From positions 320,001 to 384,000 of the forward strand of contig CAWDEM010000004.1 in NCBI GenBank assembly GCA_963801355.1: 64,000 nucleotides of DNA, in the 5' to 3' direction. The position numbers and the translations under genes are program-made. The notes under the pieces are model-generated. The model did not search any database. It saw only the letters and a list, made by a program, of their open reading frames with translations, and was not told the DNA's origin. Origin of the DNA: Ignavibacteriota bacterium (lineage in GTDB: Bacteria > Bacteroidota > Ignavibacteria > UBA10030 > UBA6906). Of the stretch, positions 43,981 to 46,574 are shown piece after piece (within the stretch, counting starts at the first letter, position 1; every line of letters starts with the position of its first letter).

Positions 43981-44021
43981 TATGCTGTCTATTCAGCATA
44001 TTTGCCTGGCATGGCGTTTGC
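43981..44021 (+). promoter_or_regulatory. Sigma54 (-24/-12) promoter with an upstream palindrome
   Basis: TGGCATGGCGTTTGC at 44007-44021 has exact GG-N10-GC spacing; TATGCTG-N6-CAGCATA inverted repeat at 43981-44000. Confidence 0.65.
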
Positions 44022-44063
44022 GCCCCTTTGCAGCAGCAGTAAAGGCCACAAGCGAGGGATTCC

Positions 44064-44588
44064 ATGAGTACGGGTCACACGATTATTACCATATTCGCAT
44101 TCATACTACTTTCAACTCTGATCGTCAACTTCTATGACCTCAGCGGAAACGCAGGGGACTCCATTTCAAGCGGACAGGATGGCATCTTTCTGACGTCCAT
44201 TACTACTTCATTCATCGAAATGGCACAGGGTTTGGCGTACGACAGTATCACCGACACCATGAATGTCGGCCTCACCAATGCTCTGTCGCTCACCTCGCCG
44301 AATGATCTGGGACCTGAAGCAGGGGAAGACTCACTGCAACTGTTCAATGATTTCGATGACTTTGACGGCTTCAGCATAGAAAAAGAAGCCGGGACATCGG
44401 GTCGCCGCTACCGGACGTCATTCAGGGTGTTCTATGTAAATCCGGACGATCTTGAACAGATCGCTTTGTCCCGGACATTCGTGAAGAGACTGGACATGAG
44501 AACATGGCGGACATTTCCGCCGGCAGGGGATTCAATGGTGGACACGTTGAGATCCGGTTTTGTCATGGGTTACTTTCACTTTGACTGA
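44064..44588 (+). CDS. Minor-pilin-like protein (MshD/PilV-like)
   Basis: N-terminal hydrophobic helix after MSTG; LGPEAGE...FNDFDDFDG resembles the MshD motif. Confidence 0.6.
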   Translation: MSTGHTIITIFAFILLSTLIVNFYDLSGNAGDSISSGQDGIFLTSITTSFIEMAQGLAYDSITDTMNVGLTNALSLTSPNDLGPEAGEDSLQLFNDFDDFDGFSIEKEAGTSGRRYRTSFRVFYVNPDDLEQIALSRTFVKRLDMRTWRTFPPAGDSMVDTLRSGFVMGYFHFD

Positions 44589-44599
44589 GGGAGACGAGA

Positions 44600-45214
44600 A
44601 TGTCGGATATACTGGATTATATCAGCTCGATCTTGATGGGTGGCATGCTCACGCTGAACGTGCTCACCGTCAATGAGATCGCCAATGAGACCTACTCCGT
44701 CTATCAGGGCGATATGTCGGTGCAGGAAATGCTGGTGACCAGCGTGCAGGTCATGGAAGGCGAATTCCGGAATATGGGATTCGGGGTTCCCGAGAATGAG
44801 CGGACGGTTCTCGATGCGGATACGTCCAGCGTCACATTTTTGACAGACCTTAACCGGGACGGCGCGCCGTTGGATACGGTCCGGTATTTCCTTGGATCGA
44901 TTGACGAGCTCAGCTATACGCAGAACGTCCTGGACCGTTACGTCTATCGCACCGTCAACGGTGTCAACGGGCTCAAGGTCGGCGTAGTGACAACATTCCG
45001 GTTCCGATATCTTGCCAGGGGCGGTGAAGAGCTTGCACTGCCGGTTCCCGCGGACCGTCTGTCCGAGATCCATGAGGTGGAAATCACAATGGAAGTGCAA
45101 AACCCGTATGCCATCTACAATGTCGATCAGACGACGACAGGCAACGAGAGCGCACTCTTCTCCAGCTCGTACTGGCAACAGACGCGTCTGGCATCACAGA
45201 ATTCAAGGAGGTAA
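44600..45214 (+). CDS. Minor-pilin-like protein (PilW/MshO-like)
   Basis: MSDILD followed by a hydrophobic helix with GG; EFRNMGF resembles the PilW-type ExRxAG segment; DLNRDG loop. Confidence 0.55.
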   Translation: MSDILDYISSILMGGMLTLNVLTVNEIANETYSVYQGDMSVQEMLVTSVQVMEGEFRNMGFGVPENERTVLDADTSSVTFLTDLNRDGAPLDTVRYFLGSIDELSYTQNVLDRYVYRTVNGVNGLKVGVVTTFRFRYLARGGEELALPVPADRLSEIHEVEITMEVQNPYAIYNVDQTTTGNESALFSSSYWQQTRLASQNSRR

Positions 45215-45220
45215 CCCACC

Positions 45221-46507
45221 GTGGGTGGCAGAGCAGCGTTGATACTTGTTCTCGGTGTTTCGTTCATTCTTGGGTACATCTCAAGGAACATCAACACCGT
45301 GGCCACGAAGGCGGTCAGCAACATGTCGATGTACAACTCGATGACCGCATCACATGATCTTGCGCTGGCAGGGGCCAACGCGCGTCTGGCGGAATTCTAT
45401 CAGGACACCAGCTCTCTTGCGAGCATGTCCCAGACCTTTGACGGTACAGTCTATAACGGCAGTTTTGTTGCGTCGATGCAGGCGATCAGCGGCAACCGCA
45501 TCAGACTCCGGAGCGTTTCCACGTATCCCATGGGCGGCGGCGCATCGTTGCACGACACCGTGGAGGTTTTCTTTGACAGGAACAAGAAGAACAGCTTTAC
45601 GCTCTTTGCCTGGATGACCGACTTTGAAGGAAATGTGTTCTGGGTGAACTCCGACACCGTGTGGGGCCGCGTCCACTCCAACGGCAACCTGCACATCAAC
45701 GGAAGTCCGGTGTTCATGCAAAAGGCAACCACGGCAAAGGGTTTCGATCCGCCCAAGGTGGGAAAGGGAACCAACAAGGCGATTTTCAAAGACGGTTATG
45801 AAACCGGTATCGCGCCCATCAACTTCCCTACAGACATCTCCGAAATCCTCACTGCAAGCGTCAGCGGCGGCAGAAAGTACATCGGCGACATCTATGTGAC
45901 ACTGTCTCCCGGCACGTCGGCAAACAATGACGGCAAGGCGTACATCAGAAGCGGGAACACTGCGGCAGGGGCGATCATCGATTCCGTGAACCTCAACGAC
46001 GGAAGTTTCAACGGAGCGGTGCTGGCGACAGGCAAAGTCAATGTGGAAGGCACACTCGACGGAAAGCTGACGCTCGCTTCCCAGACGAACGTGGTGGTCC
46101 AGAATGACGTGTTGTACGAAAGAAATCCGCAGGTCACCACAAGCGATGACGTCCTGGGGCTTGTGGCCGAGCAAAATGTGATTGTTGCCGATAATGCGGC
46201 CAACCGCAACAATTGCGAAATCCACGCAAGCATCTTCACGCGTACAGGATCGTTTACCGCGCAGAACTATAACTCACTTCCCCTCACCGGTCAGCTTCGC
46301 GTGCTTGGTTCCATCGTCCAGAAGGAACGCGGGGCGGTAGGCACATTCTCCGGCAGCACGTTGAATCATGGGTTTTCCAAACGGTACCGGTATGACACCC
46401 GGCTGGCGGACCAGACCTTCCGTCCGCCCTTCTATCCGGGCTACTACGTGAGCACGTATGCAATCACCAACTGGTGGGAAAGCTACCGTGTGATGGAGTT
46501 TGAGTAG
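45221..46507 (+). CDS. PilX-like protein with a beta-rich C-terminal domain (DUF4900-like)
   Basis: GTG start, GRAALILVLG PilX-type N-terminus, ALAGAN, GRVHSNGNL, GFSKRYRYDTRL..PPFYP. Confidence 0.6.
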   Translation: MGGRAALILVLGVSFILGYISRNINTVATKAVSNMSMYNSMTASHDLALAGANARLAEFYQDTSSLASMSQTFDGTVYNGSFVASMQAISGNRIRLRSVSTYPMGGGASLHDTVEVFFDRNKKNSFTLFAWMTDFEGNVFWVNSDTVWGRVHSNGNLHINGSPVFMQKATTAKGFDPPKVGKGTNKAIFKDGYETGIAPINFPTDISEILTASVSGGRKYIGDIYVTLSPGTSANNDGKAYIRSGNTAAGAIIDSVNLNDGSFNGAVLATGKVNVEGTLDGKLTLASQTNVVVQNDVLYERNPQVTTSDDVLGLVAEQNVIVADNAANRNNCEIHASIFTRTGSFTAQNYNSLPLTGQLRVLGSIVQKERGAVGTFSGSTLNHGFSKRYRYDTRLADQTFRPPFYPGYYVSTYAITNWWESYRVMEFE

Positions 46508-46538
46508 CACTGCGATGCGTTGCAAGTAGCGCTGAATT

Positions 46539-46574
46539 TCCCGTAATTGCCGTATTAGGCAATTACGGGATTTC
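46539..46574 (+). terminator. Perfect 13-bp hairpin terminator after the pilin-like trio
   Basis: TCCCGTAATTGCC-GTATTA-GGCAATTACGGGA followed by TTTC. Confidence 0.75.

Follow-up and report, generated by a model that had tools for sequence, protein, structure and literature searches.

Leader cleavage by a prepilin peptidase is described, in sections of two reviews, as required before type IV filaments can assemble, and the peptidase is counted there among the five proteins of the ancestral core (PMC10191384, PMC6668835). Canonical pili often rely on Glu5 as well, according to the part of one review that treats this residue (PMC10191384). For ComZ of Thermus thermophilus, excerpts of PMC6561018 report that the protein binds DNA and that PilFind does not recognise it as a PilD substrate. 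In Melioribacter roseus, pilT, pilQ, pilB and pilC have been reported, and the relevant part of that report notes pilA and pilD as missing (PMC3534657). Here we analysed a cassette of three genes (A, B and C) at positions 43,981-46,574 of a 64,000-nucleotide (nt) stretch of an Ignavibacteriota bacterium genome (GCA_963801355.1, contig CAWDEM010000004.1, positions 320,001 to 384,000); this whole stretch is termed the window. The trio stands apart from any pilus machine. We consider it reasonably probable that it forms an alternative tip on a single type IVa-like pilus that is assembled without prepilin peptidase. Literature searches turned up no account of such leaderless pilins for this lineage; supplementary gene tables (e.g. 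that of PMC6668835) may list such loci as "generic" systems.

Gene organization of the cassette and predicted folds of its products

The three genes are co-oriented on the forward strand, with gaps of 11 nt between A and B and 6 nt between B and C. Gene A (44064-44588) is an open reading frame (ORF) of 174 amino acids (aa) for a predicted leaderless minor pilin with a GspI/XcpV (PilV-like) fold. Gene B (44600-45214; ORF of 204 aa) encodes a predicted leaderless minor pilin with a GspJ/XcpW (PilW-like) fold and an Asp at position 6. Gene C (45221-46507; 428 aa), which has a GTG start, encodes a candidate tip pilin in the PilX/GspK position with a putative large added DUF4900-like domain. The ORF coordinates bear out the gene order, gaps and N-termini given in the initial annotation. 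Its statement that the window lacks a major pilin, assembly ATPase, secretin or peptidase also held, and no platform match fell there either; such matches lie elsewhere in the genome or were found nowhere.

Pilin folds had been proposed for the trio from sequence motifs and gene order, and predicted models and fold searches upheld the proposal for A (GspI type) and B (GspJ type). The AlphaFold 2 model of A (predicted local distance difference test score, pLDDT, 93.6; 142 sequences) has a helix at residues 3-56 followed by a beta-sheet head. Against 48,161 solved chains, its top match was XcpV (Z 8.4, root-mean-square deviation [rmsd] 2.7, 85 residues aligned), followed by GspI (Z 8.2, rmsd 2.1, 80 aligned), EpsI (7.7) and Thermus TTHA1218 (7.2). 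The model of B (pLDDT 79.4, 64 sequences) has a helix at residues 2-57. Its top match was TTHA1219 (Z 11.3, rmsd 3.1, 138 aligned), with XcpW (11.2), EpsJ (10.6) and GspJ (10.0) close behind and the next row at 5.6; Foldseek agreed with a GspJ-type fold (E 4.8e-4). Both predicted models thus show the lollipop pilin fold, a long alpha1 helix with an antiparallel beta-sheet head.

Sequence profiles were less informative. No Pfam or NCBIfam name was obtained above cut-off for A, B or C, and profile searches of solved structures with alignments of the three proteins gave no match. Comparison of A with the pilin profile gave a probability of 9% over 21 N-terminal columns only and was set aside as evidence. 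C matched DUF4900 below the cut-off (E 0.0044), and a homolog of C with 57% identity resembles Atlas clusters in which 11-54% of members carry DUF4900 and PilX_N. C is likely a PilX/GspK-like third member. By analogy, the order of an I-type protein, a J-type protein and a large third protein matches tip-priming sets, which suggests that the three products may form a heterotrimer. Taken together, A, B and C are very probably a minor-pilin trio. The A family alone comprises 1112 clusters at 50% identity.

N-termini of the trio and of the major pilins

Each of A, B and C opens with Met, followed by a brief polar stub and then a long hydrophobic helix. The starts of A, B and C are preceded by in-frame stops at 7, 5 and 2 codons' distance and are kept in homologs; no leader can therefore be added, and alternative upstream starts that might supply one were ruled out. 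The N_methyl profile (PF07963) matched nothing in the trio or in the genome, and the class III pilin pattern matched none of 52,517 genome ORFs. These results, together with the lack of Gly from residues 2-4 in window B, confirmed that a class III leader motif is missing, as had been proposed.

The same N-terminal pattern extends to relatives. Lys or Arg within residues 1-8 was absent from all 68 A, 68 B and 53 major pilin sequences and present in 69 of 71 C. Among the best 150 of the 1112 A clusters, only 2 of 133 full-length sequences had Lys or Arg in the first eight residues, and distant families are also leaderless. All pilin homologs among the matches listed (120/120) begin with MGQQQ. 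Glu within residues 1-12 occurred in 3/68 B and in no A (0/68), C (0/71) or pilin (0/53). Eight solved pilins aligned to the pilin family with one common offset, by which family residue 4 corresponds to mature +1.

The initial annotation had noted that removal of Met from B places an Asp at +5, the usual position of Glu5. This stands for window B and its close homologs, in which Asp6 is nearly invariant (115/120), and fails for the wider family. Among broader B sequences Asp is at position 8 in 14/68, as in the machine-linked B paralog of this genome; some distant families have no Asp. Distant families frequently carry W, N, Q or H at residue 2, and these residues block Met removal. Judging from these sequences, Met removal does not set the Asp register across the B family. 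Where the B model aligns with GspJ, EpsJ and XcpW, the first paired residues differ by one in number; Asp6 would fall at +5 if, as we assume, those entries use mature numbering. It is plausible from the alignments that Asp serves B as a stand-in for Glu5.

No A24-type prepilin peptidase found

The genome (4.8 Mb, 8 contigs, 100% complete) had no match to the Peptidase_A24 profile, for which controls were positive in 12/14 genomes. It likewise had no A24_N match above cut-off, no credible match to SPP or Arc_PepC_II, and nothing in profile or tblastn searches with PilD from five relatives. The pilD count that had been suggested as a check thus came to none by all of these searches. A rule for membrane GxGD proteins, which caught all six PilD control ORFs, yielded 11 ORFs, 10 of them distinct. 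Eight of these ten candidates were transporters or sensors and two were shadow frames; none was a protease.

Across 61 related genomes, the pilin was found in 54, PilB in 54, C in 49 and an A24 peptidase in only 8; in the phylum set of 251 genomes, the pilin family was present in 101, an A24 match in 43 and both in 16. An A24 match was lacking in 85 of the 101 pilin-bearing phylum genomes, including 14 of 21 single-contig ones; the genomes in both sets are kin, not independent samples, and no test statistic is claimed. In the eight relatives with A24, the peptidase adjoins its own separate PilB in six and N_methyl pilins in six, and therefore belongs to a second system. We conclude that an A24-type peptidase is very probably not involved.

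A minority of relatives (L006, L007, L008, L053 and G058:C1:388-391 kb) have, besides the leaderless system, a second type IV filament locus of the canonical kind, which encodes N_methyl pilins, PilD and a PilB of its own.

Pilus machine and major pilins elsewhere in the genome

A lack of type IV filament machinery in the genome had been named beforehand as a possible refutation of the pilus proposal. PilB, PilC, PilT and a secretin were all found, at a single locus (G000:C4:982-996 kb) 620 kb from the cassette. Its gene order is response regulator, PilB-like, two small pilins, PilC, PilB, a paralogous trio, PilT, PilM/N-like, PilO-like, secretin and a lipoprotein with immunoglobulin-like (Ig) domains. 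Extension ATPase, platform, secretin and retraction ATPase are thus all present, with best matches to the PilB and PilT families. PilB and PilT have intact Walker A and GExRD motifs; the extension ATPase scored 409 bits as PilB versus 366 as GspE, and PilT matched with E 2e-90. The secretin is short (415 aa) and scored slightly better as GspD than as PilQ. PilM gave one weak match (NF045709, E 2e-8), PilN and PilO were placed by position only, and no PilP was identified. A search for PilY1 gave no informative result, since its control matched nowhere. The genome also has rpoN and ComEC.

The two small pilins of the locus begin with MGQQQ and MGSQQ. Four major pilin copies were found in the genome, two in this locus and two elsewhere. 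The family profile matched the Geobacter pilin (E 8.7e-4), and many members carry the Joint Genome Institute (JGI) label "Tfp pilus assembly protein PilE"; annotation pipelines therefore already see these proteins as pilin-like. The machine-linked paralogs share 26-34% identity with window B and C. We regard it as highly likely that the cassette is served by this machine.

Several features of the pilin and machine genes were observed in addition. The PilB-like paralog (L001:4451-6262; G000:C4:982450-984261), just 5' of the pilins, lacks Walker A and GExRD and overlaps the response-regulator gene. A second major pilin copy (G000:C8:181790-182194; L057:2788-3195) encodes an identical protein with one coding-DNA difference and unrelated flanks, which suggests a recent duplication or gene conversion. 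A lone third variant with 69% identity (G000:C4:900326-900733; L056:2824-3234) has a good sigma54-type site upstream. The Ig-domain (Big_1/invasin-like) lipoprotein (L001:18458-19915) directly follows the secretin, has homologs in 9 machine loci and is a possible pilotin or adhesin.

Stand-alone and machine-linked trios

In a sample of 52 loci, the window-type trio occupied the pilB-pilT slot in 10, adjoined a machine in 1 and had no machine genes in the surrounding DNA in 41; the sample is biased to this trio type, and some loci counted as stand-alone are short contigs. The machine-linked loci in one comparison set were hand-picked. In other species, the machine slot contains no trio other than the window type. 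Homologs of the window trio are 50-96% identical across the family, and up to five or six A matches occur per genome.

A quick tree built from 69 B proteins nested 8 machine-linked rows among 34 stand-alone rows, window B included, and placed the machine-linked B of this genome elsewhere. A single clade of machine-slot B was rejected by the approximately unbiased test (17 vs 20 rows, p-AU 8e-40), for which the 69 rows were thinned by hand to 37 and five long-branch rows were left out. As read from the sequences, trios have either been exchanged between stand-alone and machine-linked sites or undergone early duplication with differential loss. The proposal of an exchangeable tip module is consistent with this pattern, in which one type of trio occupies a stand-alone site in some genomes and the machine slot in others.

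In several distant genomes (L162-L168, L170, L171, L174, L176), no trio lies between pilB and pilT, and trios occur at stand-alone sites only; if the machine works there, stand-alone trios must serve it in trans. In L067, L068, L160 and L164-L166, two or three divergent trios follow one another in tandem, either at stand-alone sites or within the machine locus; L067 has three.

The sigma54-type site and the 3' hairpin

A predicted sigma54-type motif, GG-N10-GC, lies at 44007-44022 on the forward strand, 57 nt before the start of gene A. It matches 9/11 positions of the sigma54 consensus, and the genome background for such sites is 0.026 per 260 bp. The promoter motif proposed in the initial annotation is thus present and rare by chance in a genome that has rpoN, and the cassette is probably its own transcription unit. 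Sites with at least 9/11 matches were found upstream of 12/35 stand-alone trios, 0/27 machine-linked trios and 0/70 internal B genes, and upstream of 8/26 first pilins versus 1/30 later pilins. The first pilin of the machine has one of only 12 perfect sigma54-type sites in the genome. A sigma54 site before pilA is a known feature.

A perfect 13-bp hairpin at 46539-46570 (forward strand) is a candidate terminator of the trio. Its stability (z -5.6) was matched by 0/200 shuffles, so that the hairpin itself is real, as had been claimed; its role as a terminator is uncertain. Its end and the mutS ATG are 7 nt apart, and its left arm overlaps a sigma70-type promoter-like motif 5' of mutS (46520-46549, forward strand; TTG hexamer, 17-18 nt, TA..T hexamer). 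Close relatives have hairpins of differing sequence at the same place, several without a U-run. At several of the more distant loci, a GC-rich hairpin that does have a U-run lies further upstream as a separate element. The mutS promoter-like motif occurred in 17/19 loci with mutS versus 0.4% of shuffles, a comparison that is partly circular, as the pattern was drawn from these loci. The hairpin may serve mutS as well as, or instead of, the trio.

The cassette is flanked by two genes that we take, from their sequence, to be metF (609 aa, methionine synthesis) on one side and mutS on the other. The order metF-trio-mutS recurs in 13/52 loci. In six relatives (L090, L094, L100, L102, L103, L105), the mutS promoter-like motif ends only 4-6 nt before the assigned start, which hints at a leaderless mutS mRNA.

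Proposed mechanism and alternative explanations

We propose the following model. The helix of each subunit would act as a signal anchor, with the N-terminus in and the head out. With no charged leader to be cut from the stub (one Lys/Arg is retained in C), processing would be confined to deformylation or Met removal, and subunits would be extractable as soon as they are made. Fold and gene order suggest that C, A and B would join in a priming complex in which C occupies the tip. PilB and PilC would add the MGQQQ pilin beneath this complex, PilT would retract the fibre, and the secretin would let it out. Sigma54 would co-induce the cassette with the major pilin, and either of two tips could cap the pilus. 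The two C heads, ~26-30% identical, would bind different ligands (surface, polysaccharide or DNA). The isoelectric point of the C soluble part is 6.4 for the window copy and 8.9 for the machine-linked paralog. Because window C is near neutral, adhesion may be as likely as DNA binding, despite the analogy with ComZ and the presence of ComEC. Proteolysis beyond Met removal is likely absent, and the odds moderately favour the cassette as a working alternative tip. The evidence is evenly poised on a broader proposal: that a whole filament branch in Ignavibacteria-type bacteria and neighbouring classes has lost leader, peptidase, N-methylation and Glu5 for every subunit, and varies its function by switching separately promoted tip cassettes, the present one with its sigma54-type site among them.

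Several observations weigh against the peptidase-free tip model. PilB, PilC, PilT and the secretin all scored below NCBIfam equivalog cut-offs, and the Z of 8.4 for A is close to the background that the tool states for best matches. No 9/11 sigma54-type site was found at 23/35 stand-alone trios and 18/26 first pilins. The genome counts come from kin, and the tree pattern could have arisen without active exchange, by an old duplication followed by differential loss. Glu5 is missing from every major and A-type subunit. A Gly is conserved near the start, at residue 2 in 53/53 pilins and within residues 2-4 in 70/71 C and 53/68 A, but only 20/68 B. Since pilin residue 4 aligns with mature +1, three residues precede the mature start, and these could be trimmed by an unknown enzyme.

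Archaeal short-leader pilins are cut at G|Q, and by this precedent the same tip cassette could have its stub of 1-3 residues trimmed by a protease from outside the A24 family, or by one that has diverged from it beyond recognition. The invariant Gly2 of the pilins, the Gly before Lys/Arg in C, the G-Q of most A and the pilin register that leaves MGQ ahead of +1 all fit such trimming. A precedent of another kind is the mitochondrial type II secretion system (T2SS), which lacks GspO and for which the sections of PMC10128026 on its maturation propose another protease. However, 48/68 B and 15/68 A have no Gly in residues 2-4, and stub length differs between paralogs. The genome offers no GxGD protease candidate, and no conserved peptidase-like gene was found among unlabelled ORFs common to at least three machine loci, within short flanks. 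We regard trimming as the main alternative, though an unlikely one, and retain the model of a tip assembled without proteolysis of the stub.

Less likely still, the machine could build a short periplasmic endopilus for secretion that the trio primes, or the proteins could stay membrane-anchored. T2SS pseudopilins are the best fold matches, the short secretin leans to GspD, and the part of PMC6668835 on Bacteroidetes describes a secretion system derived from type IVa pili (T4aP). However, PilT is intact and strongly matched, PilB scores above GspE, and the genome has four major pilin copies; the large variable C head suits a surface tip. Minor pilins of Thermus type IV pili are likewise pseudopilin-like, as the portion of PMC6561018 concerned describes.

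The stand-alone trio could also stay out of the fibre altogether, as a silent or regulatory duplicate: the machine locus already has a complete trio, and Pseudomonas minor pilins have been reported, in part of the literature, to regulate FimS-AlgR. We consider this improbable: the window ORFs are intact with homologs conserved across the family, the metF-trio-mutS order recurs, other species have the window type as the sole trio of their machine slot, and the cassette has its own conserved promoter motif.

If the model of a leaderless tip is correct, a natural peptidase-free system would show which parts of pilin maturation are needed, and questions on N-methylation and Glu5 would become directly testable. 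The lack of pilA and pilD in the M. roseus report would be explained if that strain carries this pilin family. Detection by class III signals would miss these pili. The system would also offer a peptidase-free chassis with naturally swappable tips.

Comparison with known systems

The mannose-sensitive haemagglutinin (MSHA) pili (MshD/O/P) resemble the present system in that their loci have no peptidase in cis, by the section of PMC6668835 that treats them. They differ in having PilD elsewhere in the genome and no PilT, as stated in parts of PMC6668835 and PMC10191384, whereas the present genome has PilT and yielded no PilD. The mitochondrial T2SS is likewise a type IV filament system without a prepilin peptidase gene. 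It differs in that a long N-terminal extension on its GspG is presumed to be cut off by another protease, Glu5 is kept, and minor pilins are absent (PMC10128026, in the parts that concern these subunits).

The bacterial T2SS proteins GspI/GspJ/GspK (XcpV/W/X) share the gene order and include the best structural matches of A and B. The present system differs from T2SS in that PilT is present, C is larger with a putative DUF4900-type domain, GspO is lacking and the subunits are leaderless. The acidic FDDFDDF motif of A presumably recalls MshD.

In T. thermophilus, the PilA1-PilA2-PilA3-ComZ set places pseudopilin-like minor pilins beside a large tip pilin, as here (PMC6561018, in the part on this cluster). 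TTHA1219 was the top match for B, and TTHA1218 the fourth for A. Unlike the trio, PilA1-3 are canonical class III pilins and PilD is present, by the same part of PMC6561018, and C has no sequence match to ComZ.

The T4aP priming sets (PilV/PilW/PilX; PilI/J/K) share with the cassette the three-gene order and the long N-terminal helix. T4aP systems also share extension and retraction ATPases, platform, secretin and a sigma54-type site before the major pilin. The present system differs in having no class III leader, Phe+1, Glu5 or PilD and in its predicted fused PilM/N-like protein, and the cassette has no FimU-like fourth gene. The cassette resembles a tip set, yet no class III signal and no peptidase were found for it, which sets it apart from canonical T4aP. 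The filament is less undescribed than first claimed: its motor and secretin are of the usual T4aP-like kind, and the system is new only in the N-termini of its subunits and the absent peptidase.

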